From NCBI GenBank assembly GCA_951406725.2, contig OX597816.1, positions 168,206,001 to 168,270,000 of the forward strand: a stretch of 64,000 nucleotides of DNA. The letters are read 5' to 3'. Shown piece by piece: positions 15,832 through 31,036 of the stretch. The notes under the pieces were generated by a model, which had not been told where the DNA came from, ran no database searches, and saw only the letters and a program-made list of their open reading frames with translations. Each line of letters opens with the position of its first letter. Position 1 is the stretch's first letter. The position numbers and the translations under genes are program-made. The stretch is from Octopus vulgaris. Lineage: Eukaryota.

Positions 15832-16029
15832 GCTTTACAAATAATATATATATATATATATGTACTCACATATATACATACATATGTACACATACATATA
15901 CATATACGCATAGATATATACACACAGATATAGATACACATATAAACAAGTACATACTTGTACATACACACATGCACACACACACACGTAGATATACATA
16001 TATGTATGTGTAAATGCAGTGTACATAAG

Positions 16030-16549
16030 AGGTATCTATCATAGGGTACCTTGCACGCTAGAGGGAATAGCCAAAATCCAAACCACTATTATGGATAAAT
16101 TTCAAAGGGAATGAAAAATAAAAACATTTACCATCTATCTCCTGGACCATGGTTTCTGACTTTATATTAGCAAATAAAATAATTTGCTAGGCGAAGTCTT
16201 CATCAACAGGTACGGCTAGATTAAACATATAAATACGAGGCAATCCAGCATGTTCCTTGTGCTTATATATTATAAATTTTCAAATCCACCAAGCAAGCGT
16301 ATTTTTTTTTTTTTTTTTTGTCGGCAGCAAATAAAATAATGCCGACGTTACGACGAAAATTTGACCAAAAGAATTATCAATAAATAATATCAGGATAAGA
16401 AAAATTTTAGAAATTTTTTCTACCAGTGTCCTAGCGTGTAGAAAAATTAGTCAATAGACTATGTATTATTCATATAAATAAAGTGTACATTTAAACACAT
16501 AAGGCGTACCTGTTGATGAAGACTTCGCCTAGCAAATTATTTTCTTTGC
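16030..16549 (-). mobile_element. Hammerhead-bearing non-coding element (retrozyme/mini-PLE family), duplicated at ~18403-18922
   Basis: Shares ordered motifs with 27820-28450 (see findings). An inverted partial HHR copy lies at 16506-16545. Confidence 0.7.
16141..16210 (-). ncRNA. Type I hammerhead ribozyme motif (U3 variant)
   Basis: Minus strand CCTG-TTGATGA-aGACTT..TAGCAAAT/ATTTGCTA..AAGTCa-GAAA-CCATGG-TC^CAGG. Confidence 0.7.
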
Positions 16550-17552: not shown

Positions 17553-18513
17553 TTGAAAAGATTTGTAGAGATAACGCACGAGTAAATAGATATTTATGAA
17601 AAACAAGAACGAAAATGCTACTTTCTTAAAATTGGGTACATTTTAATTTTTCTTTTACATGTTTCGGTTTTTGAAAAACCTTATCAAAAATATATACTAA
17701 AATAGAATGTGTAAAGAGAAAAGAACTATTTAAAAAATTAAAATTAAGATTAACATTCACAGTTTACTTTCCTTTCTCCTGCAAGAACACGTTATAATAT
17801 CCTTTGGTTCTGGTAGCAGGACAAGTTCAACTGGCTGTGACCGCAAATTACTACTAACCATCTTTGTAAATTGAATAGTGTATTAATATAAGGATAAAAT
17901 CTATAAAAGATTTTATGAAGTAGCCAATGTGTAAAGCCAATTAAGGTAAAAAATCGATACGAAGTATATAATTTTTAAAAATACATTATTGTATTAAGGG
18001 CTGTTACTATAGGTAAAGTCACACGTTGGAAAGGGACACTAAAGTGAAACTACTTCATCAAATATACACACGTGCTGAAATCGATGGAATGATTCGATAT
18101 GCAATTGAACATTTTTAAAGGATTTTTCTTTGTTCATTCCTTTGACTTCAGCACGTGTGTATATTTGAAAAAGTAGTTTCACTTTAGCGTCCCCTTCCAG
18201 TGTGTGGCTTTACAAATAATATATATATATATATGTACTCACATATATACATACATATGTACACATACATATACATATACGCATAGATATATACACACAG
18301 ATATAGATACACATATAAACAAGTACATACTTGTACATACACACATGCACACACACACACGTAGATATACATATATGTATGTGTAAATGCAGTGTACATA
18401 AGAGGTATCTATCATAGGGTACCTTGCACGCTAGAGGGAATAGCCAAAATCCAAACCACTATTATGGATAAATTTCAAAGGGAATGAAAAATAAAAACAT
18501 TTACCATCTATCT

Positions 18514-18583
18514 CCTGGACCATGGTTTCTGACTTTATATTAGCAAATAAAATAATTTGCTAGGCGAAGTCTTCATCAACAGG
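18514..18583 (-). ncRNA. Duplicate of the 16141-16210 hammerhead motif
   Basis: Same sequence inside the tandem duplication. Confidence 0.7.
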
Positions 18584-18924
18584 TACGGCTAGATTAAACA
18601 TATAAATACGAGGCAATCCAGCATGTTCCTTGTGCTTATATATTATAAATTTTCAAATCCACCAGGCAAGCGTATTTTTTTTTTTTTTTTTTGTCGGCAG
18701 CAAATAAAATAATGCCGACGTTACGACGAAAATTTGACCAAAAGAATTATCAATAAATAATATCAGGATAAGAAAAATTTTAGAAATTTTTTCTACCAGT
18801 GTCCTAGCGTGTAGAAAAATTAGTCAATAGACTATGTATTATTCATATAAATAAAGTGTACATTTAAACACATAAGGCGTACCTGTTGATGAAGACTTCG
18901 CCTAGCAAATTATTTTCTTTGCAA

Positions 18925-24149: not shown

Positions 24150-25408
24150 TAAATGAAAGTGAGCCATCATCCATGCAGACACATTTCTCTCTTATGACAG
24201 CATGATTCTTTCTCACACACTGTCTTGCAACACAAAACACTTCAAGTCTTTGGTCCTCATGACGCAGAAGATTGGCAAATTTTTTTTATCTGCTTCCCCT
24301 CCGGCTAAGTAAACCTGTCTCCTAGCTTCCCTTCTGGCAATCTGATACAGTTCCCTGCTACCACTGTTCTTCCAGTCCTTCCATGCCTGTTTCTTTTCCC
24401 TAATGGCCCTGTCAATTACATTGTTCCACCACGTTACCTTAGGTCAAGAGGGGACTTTGCGCCATCCACAGATCTGGTCAGTTGCCCTCAACAGGTTTTT
24501 CTGTAGGAACCTCCAGTTGTCTTCCAAATTGTGATGCTATATCCCCTCTTTTTCATCAAAAGGTTTGAGTAATACGTCTCTAAATCTCCATTCACAGGAT
24601 CCTTAAGCTTCAGACCCTTCTTTTCCATGTTGGTCATCTTCTGGGCATCCATTTAGCCCTGATCCTGAAGTCACTAACTACTAACCTATGTTGTGGGGTA
24701 CATTCTTCACCTGAGAAGGTTTTGGCATTTATTAGTAGCCATCTTTCCTGTTCCCTGGCAAGAATTTAGTCAATGTGACAACTGTCCACCAGACAGGTAG
24801 GTGAACAGGTGATTGGCAGGTTTCCTGAAGTTAGTATTACATACCATAAGATCATTTGCATCACAAAACTCCAGCATTGAAGGAACTAAATCCATAACCA
24901 CCATGTACACCATGGAAGCTCCCTGCATGTTGTCCAACATGCCCAATGAAGTTGCCAGCCACAAAGAGAAGGTCCCTGTCATTCGTCGTCGAGGTAGTCT
25001 GCAAGAAGGTGTCACAAAATTGGTCTTTCTGTTCATCAGGTAGCCCTAGCTGAGGGGCATAAGCCAAGATAATGGTCATTAATCTATGTTGCAGCACTAA
25101 TCTAAGCTTAAGTATTCTGGCACAGACTCTGAATATCTCAATTACCTTATCAACCCATTTCCCTGCAAGAAGTATACCCATGCCTCCAACTCCAACAGTG
25201 TTCCTTACCCAGAAAATTTTATATCTGTGTTCTTTGCCTTTGAGGAACCATGCAGACTTTCCTCTCCACCTTACTTCTTGGATGCAGCACAAATCTACAT
25301 GTCTCCATTCAAGCATCTCAACAATTTCACCAGACCTACCTTTCAATGTGCCAACCCTGACGGTGTGGAAGGTGTAGGTCCATGAGTCCCTGGGATGGGG
25401 GACAGCAG

Positions 25409-25410
<2 letters not shown>
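24150..25410 (-). mobile_element. RTE-clade LINE, 5' endonuclease region, degraded
   Basis: [15 protein letters not shown]...[12 protein letters not shown]...AYAPQLG...GNFIGHVG; [18 protein letters not shown]. Confidence 0.9.
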
Positions 25411-25454
<44 letters not shown>

Positions 25455-25465
25455 ATATATAAATG

Positions 25466-25542
<77 letters not shown>

Positions 25543-25587
25543 GTATATATATATATGTATATATATATATGTATATATATATATATG

Positions 25588-25638
<51 letters not shown>

Positions 25639-26164
25639 GAACAGGAATGTGAAACTCTGCATAGCAGTTTTTGTGATACTTTTCTGATGTTTTGGCAGCT
25701 TTAATAATAAAGCCATGTTACTCTACCTCTGGTATTCGAGTACTTTTTTTATCCACCTTGTTTCACGTTTATGTGCTTACTCTGGTGTGTGTGCATGTGC
25801 GTGTGTGTGTGTGTGTGTCTGTGTGTGTGTGTCTGTGTGTGTGTGCATGTGTGCATACATACATACATACATTCACAGCTAATAGTGAGGGATTATCAAT
25901 CCAGGCAAAGTTCTTTGTAAACTCTCTTTTGGCATTAGTCAAGAACCCCAAGTATTCTTTTGGCAGGGTCCAATACTGTGGCTCATCACAATTCTATATT
26001 GTCAATCCATGTTTGGGCTCCAGACAAACCTGTTTATACACAGAGTGATATGTAAGACAAGGTATAAATAATGGTCACTACAATTTTTTTCTTTTATTAG
26101 AACAATTTTGTGTTACTGCTGTTTCCAGTAGTCAAAGGTATGTTGCTGATAGGTTTACTGCTCT

Positions 26165-26395
26165 ACTCTTTCACCACAACTTTCTCTCACTCTTTCTTCC
26201 TGTTTCTGTTGTACCTGTATTTCAAGGGGCCGGCCTTGTCACTCTCTGTGTCACGCTGAATATCTCCAAGAACTACGTTAAGGGTGCACGTGTCTGTGGA
26301 ATGCTCAACCACTTACACGTTAATTTCACGAGCAGGCTGTTCCGTTGATTCGGATCAACCGGAACCCTCGTCGTCGTAAACGACGGAGTGCTTTC
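26165..26395 (+). mobile_element. 5'-truncated SINE (body like family B, tail like family F)
   Basis: ctctttcaccacaactttctctcactc is shared with B; gaactacgttaagggtgcacgtgtctg is shared with 50883-51536. Confidence 0.7.
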
Positions 26396-27632
26396 AAAAA
26401 AAAAAACTGATAAGTTTACTTACTTTGTCAGGAAAAGTTGTCCTGCTTTTGCAATTTTACAACTCTATAAAAATGCTGCTGTGAGTTCTTTTTCAAAGTG
26501 GAAGAGTGGAGTAGTCCTTCATGGGCATGCAGCCCAAATTAATTTAAGTTCTATTTTGTTTGTTTTCTGATTTTATCTGGTTGTCTTTCAGAATCTTTAT
26601 AAATCTGTTATTTTCAGTGAGTAGATTGTTAATTTTCGTAGTTTTTGTCTTTACCATAATTAAAAATATATTACACTTGTCACATTTTCATGTTTCATTA
26701 TCATATTTTAATGTTGTACGTAATTTATTGAGGCTTCATATTAAGTAAGTTTTTATTGTTGTTTACGTACCACTACAAGCCTAGTCTTAAAGTTTATATT
26801 GCTTTTATCTTTGAGGTTTTATGGATTCATAGAATAGTTTGATTTCAACTTTTCTCTGGTTTTAATTAGATTTCAGTTGCAAATGGAAGTTAGTGTCAAG
26901 GTCATGAAGTGTAATTTGATTTTGCCTAAGCATGTTGGTGTGTAAGAGAATAAGGGATTTATCATCCACCTGGTTAAAGTGATTTTCTTTTTCCCTTGCA
27001 AAGATTGCTCAGCAATTTTGTTGTGAAATTCATTTATGGATATGTATTGTGTGGGGAGAAGAGAAACTTAATGTCCCAAGACTAACTCCGTCCGAGAGAT
27101 AATTAAAGTTTCAATGGAGGAGTTTGGGTGGCACAGAGCAAATATAAAACAGGAAGTGAGATGAGAGTGGGTAAACATGAAATGGGTGTGTTTTTTTTTT
27201 AAATAGAAGTAATCTCAAATTGTTAATTTTTTTTTTTTGTATTGCTGGGTAACTAGAACTCAATGGGTATGGGTAACAAAATTCAGAGTGGAAATAGGGA
27301 AAATAATTGTATGGTTAGTAAAAGTCAGGGAACAGTGCTAAATAAAGTTCAGTGACTGTTGTAATGACATTATAGAAAGGAAGAAGGGCAAGAAAGAGAA
27401 AGAAAGTGGATCACTAGCTGGAATGATATAAGCAGAAGTGAAAACAAATTTTAGAGTGTTTTGTTCCTAATTTGTTATGAAAGAGGAGGTGTGCAGCTAT
27501 TATTTAATAAATATTTCTTACTAATTAATGTATATATTTCTATAAATGTAAAAGTTTTCTTAGTATCTCTCTTGCTCCCTTTGTGTCCATGCTTGTGTAA
27601 TGTGCATATATGTATGTGTGTATATGTGTGTG

Positions 27633-27677
<45 letters not shown>

Positions 27678-27682
<5 letters not shown>

Positions 27683-28448
27683 ATTAATCAATATTAGGGT
27701 AGCAAAAAATTCAATAGAAATTATTTTGCCACCAGCGGTCTAGTGAGAAAAAGGAAATAGTCAGAGACTATTAATAAATTCAACAACAAATTGAGGAACG
27801 GCTATAATAGGCCGTTCGACAATGCATTGTCTAAAGAAGAACAGGGTAAATGTTTTTTAAATTTTTCCTCTGATTCCGGAATTACTACTATTTGCAGTTA
27901 GCCCTGGTTGCTATTTCTAGTGGGTCGAACGGCCTATTATAGCCGTTCCTCAATTTGTTGTTGAATTTATTAATAGTCTCTGAGTATTTCCTTTTTCTCA
28001 CTAGACCGCTGGTGGCAAAATAATTTCTATTGAATTTTTTGCTACCCTAATATTGATTAATTGATAATTTTCTGATTAATTCCGAAATTGAATCGGCAGT
28101 TTATATTTGCTGCCGATAAGTTGGCGCGAGTACGACGATTTTGAAAATTTTAGGTCATATATTGCCGAGGCATGAAGGTAGCTGCCTCGTGTAATTTCTG
28201 TCCCTTTCTGGCTCCTTTACTGATGAACGCGTTGGCCTTTGGAAGATTGACTTGATTGAGTTTAATTTAATTTAATCAGGCTGGTTTACCATTAAAAAAC
28301 GCTGAAACAATGCATTGTCTAAAGAAGAACAGGGTAAATGTTTTTTTAATTTTTCCTCTGATTCCGGAATTACTACTATTTGCGGTTAGCCCTGGTTGCT
28401 ATTTCTAGTGGGTCGAACAGCCTATTATAGCCGTTCCTCAATTTGTTG

Positions 28449-28450
<2 letters not shown>
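27678..28450 (+). mobile_element. Hammerhead-bearing 488-bp-period non-coding element with inverted 5' arm, inserted in (TA)n
   Basis: 27820-27962 repeats at 28308-28450. 27678-27820 is the reverse complement of 27924-28066. (TA)n on both sides. Confidence 0.85.
28212..28327 (+). ncRNA. Type I hammerhead ribozyme motif, canonical core
   Basis: CTTTA-CTGATGA-A(c)GCGTT...AACGCT-GAAA-CAATGCATTG-TC^TAAAG; predicted cleavage after C28319. Confidence 0.8.
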
Positions 28451-28507
<57 letters not shown>

Positions 28508-28510
<3 letters not shown>

Positions 28511-28710
28511 CTCTTTTACTCTTTTACTTGTTTCAGTCATTTGACTGTGGCCATGCTGGAGCACCGCCTTTAGTCGAGCAAATCGACCCCAGGACTTATT
28601 CCTTGTAAGCCTAGTACTTATTCTATCGGTCTCTTTTGCCGAACCGCTAAGTTACAGGGTCATAAACAAAACACACCACCATCGGTTATCAAGCAATGTT
28701 GGGGGGACAA

Positions 28711-28799
<89 letters not shown>

Positions 28800-28966
28800 C
28801 ATATATACGATGGGCTTCTTTCAGTTTCTGTCTACCAAATCCACTCACAAGGCTTTGGTCGGCCCGAGGCTATAGTAGAAGACACTTGCCCAAGTGCCAC
28901 GCAGTTGGACTGAACCCGGAACCATGTGGTTGGTAAGAAAGCTACTTACCACACAGCCACTCCTAC
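28508..28966 (-). mobile_element. tRNA-derived CORE-type SINE, family C
   Basis: Head TGGCTGTGTGG / GGTTCAGTCC, CORE-like CTTGGGCAAGT, internal TA/TG microsatellite, (GTAAAAGA)n tail. Confidence 0.9.
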
Positions 28967-29502
28967 TAACTTGACCTCATCCCATTTCAACCTAACATCT
29001 CTCAATCTATCAGTATATATATCCAAGCTAAGAAGAGCATCCTAGACCTCTACCCTACAAGATGACTACTAATAATATTCCTTCATTTTCTATTATAACT
29101 CCCTTACTATGCTTGATAGCAACAACCACCAAATATTAGTCTCAGACTTACCATGAGTATAAAAAGCCCATATCAAAATTTCCACACACTAGTTGGAGAA
29201 TATCCAACCTTTATACAATGCTAATGTGTTGACCTGACTATAAACACTAATGTGTTATGACTGTCCCTTTTTCAGATTTTGGCAATACCATGCCCCTGCT
29301 TCTACTAAGAGACTTTTATACTATCTTCTTTCTTCTCTTCACCCCTTTGTAACCTGTCTTCGCTTTTCTCACAAAAATTCATCATCTGAAAGCTTTCATC
29401 TTTTGCTTTCTCTTGTTTTGCATGTATACATATTTTGTTTTTGATGTATTTAATATGTTTAATATATTTGATGTGTCTAGTTTGTTTATCAATATAATTG
29501 CC

Positions 29503-29537
<35 letters not shown>

Positions 29538-29603
29538 GTGGTGCTATTAAGTTAGACATGGCCTGGACCAATCTTTGGTCGAAACATATCTAAGTTTATC
29601 TAG

Positions 29604-29672
<69 letters not shown>

Positions 29673-30233
29673 ATAATTATTATTTGAGGGAATAAAATCC
29701 AAACTTACAAGGAAAAAGAATTCAATTTAGAAATACTAAATCAAATTCCACACAATATAGTATACATAAAATATCAGAAAAAACCACCTTTTATGAATTC
29801 AAAATGAATAATTAAATTACACCATCTAGAAAATTACATATAATAGAAAAGTTAAAATTAATATAACAATTAAAAAGTAAAGATTAAGTAAATTACAAGA
29901 ATAATGTCATGTATATAGATTAATTTGTCCATGTAAATCTGACCTTGGTAAATTGAGTAAACTTATTTTAGATAAATATATTAATAAATTAGATAAATTA
30001 ATTACTTAAAATTATGGTTTAGTAATAATAATACTTTAAATTGGTTTAATAATATTAAAGGAAAAAAATCGATACAAATTTATTCAAATAGATATAGATA
30101 ATTACTATTCTTCTATTAATGAAATTGTTTTTAATAAGGCCCTTATTTTTGCAATGAATAAATATATATATATATATATGTATATATATGTATATATATA
30201 AATACATATATATATATATATGTATATATATAA

Positions 30234-30326
<93 letters not shown>

Positions 30327-31036
30327 TGTGTATAAATACTTGTGCGTATGTACAACAGAAAAATCTATAGTCCAATCCACTAATCTTTCAATACGCTTGT
30401 AGTAGAGCTCAGCACATCCCCAATTTCTGTTTGCCTTATCACTGCTTTCCCAACTTTAGAAACTAGGAAAATTGTTTCCTTTTCTGTCATTTGACCTCTT
30501 TTAACCATTAGGGCAGGACAACAGTTTGTAGTATCATATGTTTCTCAACATCTAATTGTAACTGAATCCTCTATTGGTGTCACTGACTGATTAAAATGTT
30601 TCTATGAATAAGTATTGGCAATATCAGGTGTGTTCATCACACTATAAAGCCTAAGTTGTATGCTGTTGGGCTTAAATAGTATTCTTTAGCTTCAGCCTGC
30701 TGAAGCCTCTCAGGTTTTTAAACAGAAAAGTCAGTAATTTCACTAAGGTGGTTAAATTTGAACCACATTGGCTGTTTGTCAATGCTGATATTACCTAAAG
30801 ATTGTTATAAAACATGAAAGTACTTGTAACATTATTATATGGGTCTTTTCTATTTGGCTGCCACTTTTCAATTTCTTCAATGTCGTTCCAGTTGATTTCA
30901 AATTTGGTGTAGTTTTGTATGCTCATTAATGACATGAAATTTACTTTTGCCATAAATTAGTAAATAAACAGTACATAGCTTTTAAAGTTTGCAAATTTTG
31001 GGTAATTTTAGTCAACTGAAAGCCACAGACAAATAG

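Follow-up and report, generated by a model that had tools for sequence, protein, structure and literature searches.

Animal non-LTR retrozymes are described as non-coding, AT-rich units of about 170-400 nt, repeated head to tail in arrays of up to 62-mers, each with one type I hammerhead and a stable predicted fold; expression and circles have been demonstrated for them, and the Penelope-like elements (PLEs) with which they coexist were named a strong candidate for their mobilisation (Cervera & de la Pena 2020, PMC7229834). PLE machinery is likewise the proposed mover of vertebrate retrozymes, whose units range over 51-972 bp (Li, Clavereau & Pollet 2026, 10.64898/2026.07.22.740005); there the argument is drawn from co-occurrence and pLTR homology in 35 genomes, none from a mollusc as the survey is described, and the main text holds no analysis of ends, tails, inversions or targets. 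Insertions of EN+ PLEs themselves are reported with a partial tandem, an adjacent inverted copy, a tail of 30-40 nt at one end, an AT-rich or (TA)n target and a hammerhead upstream of the end sites (PMC3846280, PMC8557442, PMC11167929), the one-end tail being qualified as 'often' or 'optionally' present (PMC3846280, PMC8557442). In vitro, the protein of a lizard PLE cleaves AT-rich DNA on both strands, extends each of them, and begins synthesis at two internal sites of the RNA, which define the tail; a dimer is predicted, and in bulk the starts show no strand preference, while the main text does not address how starts pair on a single molecule (Frangieh 2024, PMC11167929). Finally, Chlamys elements such as MRC1 are short, bear pLTRs, occur in head-to-tail copies and depend on PLEs as non-autonomous passengers; they are reported to share 3' sequence with an autonomous partner and to belong to a clade without canonical hammerheads (Craig 2021, PMC8557442).

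Here we analyse an insertion within a 64,000-nt stretch of Octopus vulgaris DNA (the window). Considering its period of 488 nt, one type I hammerhead per unit, the lack of a coding frame and its multi-copy, mobile character, the element is by the features tested a non-LTR retrozyme with predicted self-cleavage. This kind of element has already been described (Cervera & de la Pena 2020; Li et al. 2026); new are the family and the insertion-level evidence for PLEs. With the animal retrozymes it shares the non-coding head-to-tail unit, the single type I hammerhead, the AT-richness, the stable predicted fold and the coexistence with PLEs. It differs from them in its longer unit, in an insertion of ~65 nt in stem II and in being dispersed as copies of 0.1-2.2 units, half of them two-armed, rather than as long arrays; moreover, the octopus family is known here from genomic sequence, whereas expression and circles were demonstrated there (PMC7229834). 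The unit lies within the size range of the vertebrate retrozymes, but the evidence here is insertion anatomy, and the pLTR homology found there is absent; the pipeline of that study also requires two complete hammerheads in tandem, so that the window copy would be missed (10.64898/2026.07.22.740005). The insertion features listed above for EN+ PLEs all recur, yet the octopus element has no ORF, its tail is ~100 nt long, and this tail is found at exactly one end in 67/67 classifiable copies. Like the Chlamys elements, it would be a short, non-autonomous PLE passenger with head-to-tail copies. We found no literature description of this family from an octopus or another mollusc; Repbase and Dfam entries, supplements and subscription papers may hold one.

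Results

Anatomy of the insertion

The insert occupies 27678-28450 and comprises a 143-bp inverted arm and a 631-bp direct arm (1.3 units of the 488-nt unit) inside a (TA)n tract. Counting the unit as q1-488 from 27820, the order is (TA)n, inverted arm q247 to q105, direct arm q1-488 plus q1-143, and (TA)n again, with the following features.

27634..27680, no strand: left (TA)n tract, the insertion target
27678..27820, minus strand: inverted arm (q247 to q105), bounded on the outside by the long (L) 3' end with its ~100-nt tail; 1 mismatch against the direct arm in 143 nt
27819..27820, no strand: head-to-head arm junction with 2-nt microhomology (AC); incidental 5' truncation point
27820..28307, plus strand: one full 488-nt unit, q1-488, non-coding
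27820..27836, plus strand: upstream hammerhead, 3' half only (stem III, GTC, 3' strand of stem I), catalytic half absent; compared with 28304-28324
27915..28045, plus strand: conserved structured module around both end sites, with a putative RT-binding role
27915-23/27996-28004, plus strand: long-range helix of the module
27927-48, plus strand: module hairpin just before site S (~27962)
28011-45, plus strand: module hairpin just before site L (~28061)
28215..28324, plus strand: complete type I hammerhead motif with a branched stem II of ~65 nt; predicted cut after C28319
28308..28450, plus strand: incomplete second unit (q1-143) up to the short (S) 3' end; 3 mismatches against the first unit
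28450..28508, no strand: right (TA)n tract

A first-pass annotation of the stretch had reported the hammerhead, a direct repeat of period 488, an inverted arm and (TA)n flanks, and all of these are present at the coordinates it claimed. The direct repeat (27819-27975/28307-28463, spacing 488) is 95% identical, and the inverted arms (27678-27820/27924-28066) are 99% identical over 143 nt. The element is also non-coding, as had been proposed, the longest internal stop-to-stop frame being 52 aa, and the predicted fold of the unit is stable in both circular (z -3.4) and linear (z -3.6) form. One element of the original description has however to be given up, namely that the meeting of repeat and inverted arm at stem III is meaningful. 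The 5' truncation points of 219 arms of the family are scattered along the entire unit and not enriched at q1-18, and the junction at stem III is thus incidental, with 2 nt of microhomology in the window copy. Directly right of the TA tract, 28509-28966 holds a very abundant interspersed repeat of ~450 nt, presumably a SINE, of which the window has about ten copies.

Copy number and relatives

The genome (2.8 Gb in 227 contigs) was searched with exact motifs. A 21-nt motif spanning stem III and stem I gave 217 matches, its reversed control 0, and a second motif 692 (control 0), confirming a dispersed multi-copy family. Since the second motif recovers 129 of 168 known segments and its first 100 matches correspond to 67 insertions, the counts suggest a family of roughly 600 insertions. 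We inspected 145 distinct insertions (loci fetched twice removed; L262 and L263, likely a segmental duplicate, counted as two), which are 77-99% identical to the window copy and among which no array exceeds about 2.2 units. The period stays within 460-490 nt in two sister families and at least six subfamilies.

Sister family 2 has a period of 465 and is homologous to family 1 along the whole unit. Its two copies in the window have a short palindromic stem III, a core with U3 and G8, and S and L regions as in family 1; a first look at the genome returned 3550 candidates for this family. In a third, more distant relative, stem III is palindromic with six bases, the site reads GTT, and an L-type end lies in TA.

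Window 16000-16510 and 18373-18883, minus strand: two copies of sister family 2, inside a 2.4-kb tandem duplication (14427-16804/16804-19179)
L104 430-1020, minus strand: third relative, period about 455, canonical core

The hammerhead motif

A strict hammerhead scan of both strands of the 64 kb returned 28215-28324 as the sole match, with stem I formed by CTTTA (28215-19) and TAAAG (28320-24), the core CTGATGA at 28220-26, GAAA at 28304-07 and stem III at 28308-17. The type I motif proposed in the first-pass annotation thus stands; its assignment to the minimal, dimer-cleaving PLE type (stem III of 1-2 pairs with a palindromic tetraloop, short stem II) does not, for stem III of family 1 has three pairs plus A15.1-U16.1 and a tetraloop, and stem II is long. 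A short stem III is present in sister family 2. The suggested comparison with Rfam was negative, no hammerhead model matching at E<=10 over 25000-31000, probably due to the ~65-nt stem II insertion. The hammerhead fold of 28215-28324 lies 3.8 kcal/mol above the minimum-energy fold (-20.4 vs -24.2). As the upstream repeat begins inside GAAA and so retains the 3' half only, the window copy has one complete hammerhead and not the two consecutive ones by which Li et al. define an 'active' copy; two complete hammerheads are found in other copies, e.g. L003, L004 and L006.

Conservation of the motif was assessed over 92 distinct family-1 motifs, most of them from loci selected because their stem III motif is intact. 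The count of Watson-Crick cells at the four stem pairs that vary is 322 of 368, while 2000 shuffles reach 259 at most; it is inflated by relatedness and reflects a handful of subfamily splits rather than independent events. Compensated changes across subfamilies are seen in stem I (A-U/G-C and U-A/A-U), in the closing pair of stem II (A-U/G-C) and in stem III (A-U/G-U/U-A). GAAA is kept in 91 of the 92, and the cut site is GTC in 73 or GTA in 19. The core is however not uniform: U4C occurs in 30/92, variants being fixed in whole lineages, and of 22 family-2 hammerheads 21 combine U3 with G8 and 15 have an A-A closing pair in stem II. U4C lowers activity in vitro, yet is reported to suffice in a viroid (PMC3088659), and among frog retrozyme dimers cleavage was described in only 1/9 (Li et al. 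2026, 10.64898/2026.07.22.740005). Such lineage-fixed variants (U4C, U3 with G8, the A-A closing pair) count against full activity of a cleavage that is predicted from the motif.

Separately, four loci (L108, L109, L139 and L143) carry further, unrelated type I hammerhead-like motifs with a stem II of 40-60 nt, found in random flanks and in one case as a pair within a palindromic insert; such elements seem to be plentiful in the genome.

Two 3' ends and their pairing

Sense 3' ends of the family fall at two sites ~100 nt apart, S near q143 and L near q242. TA-tract targeting, postulated from the window copy, holds across the family, with 203 of 219 3' ends abutting (TA)n, compared to 149 of 1596 positions drawn at random nearby. 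The same is true for the PLE-type geometry of tandem plus inverted copies: 74 of the 145 insertions are two-armed, of which 67 combine one L with one S end (LS), while SS and LL are both absent and the 7 others, with one arm that ends elsewhere, are unclassifiable. Independent choice of ends would yield LS at a rate of 41%. Hence the tail sits at exactly one end in every classifiable two-armed copy. The remaining 71 insertions are one-armed (50 S, 20 L, 1 other). Within 66 LS copies the longer arm is L in 35 and S in 31, and the arm junctions of the 74 two-armed copies show short overlaps or fillers (overlaps and gaps of -57 to +46 nt). A target-site duplication is unreadable inside a TA tract.

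Both sites lie 10-18 nt behind hairpins of the structured module. Across 20 sequences from both families, 96.5% of the cells of the module helices are paired, compared to 31-52% when the helices are slid, and 12 of 33 pairs show two-sided change, mostly from a single family split. Family 2 keeps both end sites with looser pairing, its 14 two-armed copies being 6 LS, 2 SS and 6 unclassifiable. The S and L ends and their strict LS pairing, absent from the first-pass annotation, are the actual evidence for PLE mobilisation. We found no published rule of one S paired with one L; repeat databases (Repbase/Dfam), supplements and subscription papers may hold one.

Resident Penelope-like elements

A GIY-YIG search of the genome gave 6136 candidates, of which the best 150 were scored and 50 fetched; the fetched loci form about nine groups. 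One of these, PLE-A, possesses an intact 781-aa frame with RT, CxxxxCxxC linker and GIY-YIG in many 98%-identical copies, and is of Neptune/Nematis type because this linker marks Neptune or Nematis (Craig 2021, PMC8557442). PLE-A (L131-L146) appears as a young autonomous family with a 4.8-kb unit, in which a frame of up to 479 codons lies upstream of the RT-EN frame; its pLTR carries a minimal hammerhead-like motif with a U3-A8 core, as read by eye. PLE-C is a second resident family of Neptune/Nematis type. Two-armed copies are LS in 2/2 cases for PLE-A and in 4/4 for PLE-C, and one-armed copies number 20 S to 7 L and 12 S to 4 L (3 unclassified), respectively, one-armed counts in which short loci may conceal second arms. 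The end sites of both are about 40 nt apart, giving tails of ~40 nt, and all lie in TA or CT/TA tracts. The retrozyme thus matches PLE-A and PLE-C in target, geometry and S:L ratio. In a further PLE family (L148 1521-2286 and 3918-4683), a two-armed insertion has 100% identical arms and, by eye, a ~30-nt tail at one end and none at the other.

No sequence common to the retrozyme unit and an autonomous PLE was detected by blastn (word 7) or an nhmmer profile of families 1 and 2 over the 50 GIY-YIG and 28 further loci, the matches at GIY-YIG loci being neighbouring retrozyme copies only. PLE protein fragments lie near 6 of the 145 retrozyme loci, one alone being fused to the element. A chimera (L015/L181; composite insertion at L181 2038-4925) joins a PLE-C S end to a retrozyme arm by 5 nt of microhomology, its other arm being PLE-C with an L end. 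It could reflect a template switch but is set aside as evidence, since a later insertion into the same TA tract fits equally; at L253, a related PLE end is found 49 nt from a retrozyme with TA between.

Discussion

We favor, at a probability of roughly 80%, that the window element is a two-armed non-LTR retrozyme insertion, likely copied into TA tracts by the RT/GIY-YIG protein of a resident Neptune/Nematis-type PLE. The PLE protein would bind the structured module (q96-226) and nick both strands of the (TA)n tract, one nick priming at S and the opposite-strand nick at L. Each cDNA would then extend 5'-ward until drop-off, and the two truncated cDNAs would be joined head-to-head by microhomology or filler; failure of one arm would leave a one-armed copy. 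At least in a master lineage, the template may be a hammerhead-cut monomer religated to a circle, from which the partial tandem would be regenerated, for which we see about even odds. Counting against PLE mobilisation are the ~100-nt tail as opposed to 30-43 nt in PLEs, the lack of sequence shared with a PLE at the loci compared and the looser family 2.

Several other origins have to be weighed. The copies could derive from an autonomous PLE, as its 5'-truncated ends (pLTRs) or as a rare product of deletion, and not be self-propagating, which the PLE-like geometry of the ends and the pLTR homology of frog retrozymes (10.64898/2026.07.22.740005) would fit. Upstream of the ribozyme, however, the arms continue into the same 488-nt unit and never into a coding frame, 160/219 crossing one cut site and 25/219 two; no coding 5' flank is common to the 71 one-armed copies, no RT plus GIY-YIG frame lies between pLTRs in the element, and the subfamilies and sister families keep their period. 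In line with the first-pass annotation, the unit is therefore not just the terminal repeat of an autonomous PLE, and the stump origin, largely refuted already, is exceedingly unlikely. A LINE of APE or REL type, with inversions made by L1-style twin priming, is highly improbable as the mover: microhomologies at the junction and 5' truncation are expected of target-primed reverse transcription in general, and no PLE homology was found at the loci compared, but the copies lack a poly(A) or LINE-like 3' repeat, and the unit continues past its end sites. Twin priming yields arms without overlap, its second primer annealing at internal positions that vary, whereas here that primer has a fixed site and the L arm runs past the S site in 57 of 66 LS copies. 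Improbable, too, as the origin of the inverted arm is DNA fold-back or self-priming of one cDNA, which has been suggested for Penelope (Arkhipova 2013, PMC3846280), in place of priming from both target strands. One arm is indeed contained in the other in 45 of 66 LS copies, and the inner ends are <=20 nt apart in 16; in the other 21, neither arm contains the other, so that both arms were templated separately and simple fold-back is excluded for these, the median inner-end offset is 94 nt, and fold-back gives no account of a second arm stopping exactly at the other fixed site.

What RNA is copied under PLE-driven insertion is more evenly poised. We used a set of copies chosen by a motif away from the ribozyme, leaving out the set from the 217-match motif, which is biased to long copies and an intact cut site. 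Of the 103 arms in this set, 61 run through the cut site and 4 end <=5 nt from the first site, which rejects cleaved linear monomers as the main template; since reverse transcription usually crossed the cleavage site, the templates were uncleaved or religated. Somewhat short of an even chance, in our estimate, is that linear, uncleaved read-through transcripts of partial-tandem copies serve as templates, with the hammerhead trimming RNA ends or tuning their level and with re-priming or template jumps regenerating tandem length. A cluster of 16 5' ends at q385-397, at the 5' edge of the hammerhead, is what a linear RNA start would give (~4-fold excess in an interval picked post hoc, on both first and second pass), and together with a drop-off of 8.9 per kb on the second turn compared to 4.0 on the first (p=0.009) it speaks against a plain circle. 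The weakened core variants of whole subfamilies point the same way, as does the report that hammerhead cleavage is dispensable for PLE insertion in vitro (PMC11167929). On the other hand, linear copying alone can only shorten a lineage, and divergence between the direct repeats within an arm is no greater than that between the two arms (2.6% each, 211/8065 and 380/14605, p=0.97), while outside homopolymers no difference between upstream and downstream copies recurs. Despite a longest arm of 1051 nt (2.15 units) and the 25 double crossings, arrays stay within about 2.2 units at all 145 loci, and higher second-turn drop-off would also be expected on a circle if the RT displaces its own cDNA. For the circle, which we hold at about even, count the stable circular fold and the need to regenerate length.

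Among sequence records holding the unit, none is recorded as RNA. Contigs from four of eight runs guessed to be RNA cover 21-29 of 29 bins of the unit, a kind of contig that cannot show ends or circles, and a 477-nt contig from a guessed-RNA run wraps round the unit, which tandem DNA would equally give. In three runs from different studies, again guessed RNA (X16, X17 and X18, on 28092-28387), the longest contig of each is a similar diverged variant, with about 30 differences in 281-296 nt and with U4C in X16 and X18; it is possibly an expressed master subfamily.

Returning to copying by a resident PLE, the question of which enzyme moves animal retrozymes becomes testable, with a PLE footprint in the insertions themselves where earlier arguments relied on co-occurrence and homology, and intact PLE frames are available in the genome for testing on retrozyme RNA. 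For the inverted arms and tails of PLEs, the retrozyme offers a convenient substrate: a short non-coding RNA whose fold is conserved, whose two start sites have been mapped 100 nt from each other, and whose natural products number in the hundreds. More tentatively, and with odds we place nearer one in three, PLE insertion may be an obligatorily asymmetric two-primer reaction, in which one RNP (probably an RT dimer) uses two fixed start sites, one per nicked strand, here on a ribozyme-made circle with 100-nt spacing. If so, the retrozyme superfamily would be the clearest natural record of such an asymmetric reaction, and would prove, for the first time at the level of insertions, that animal retrozymes are moved by PLE enzymes.
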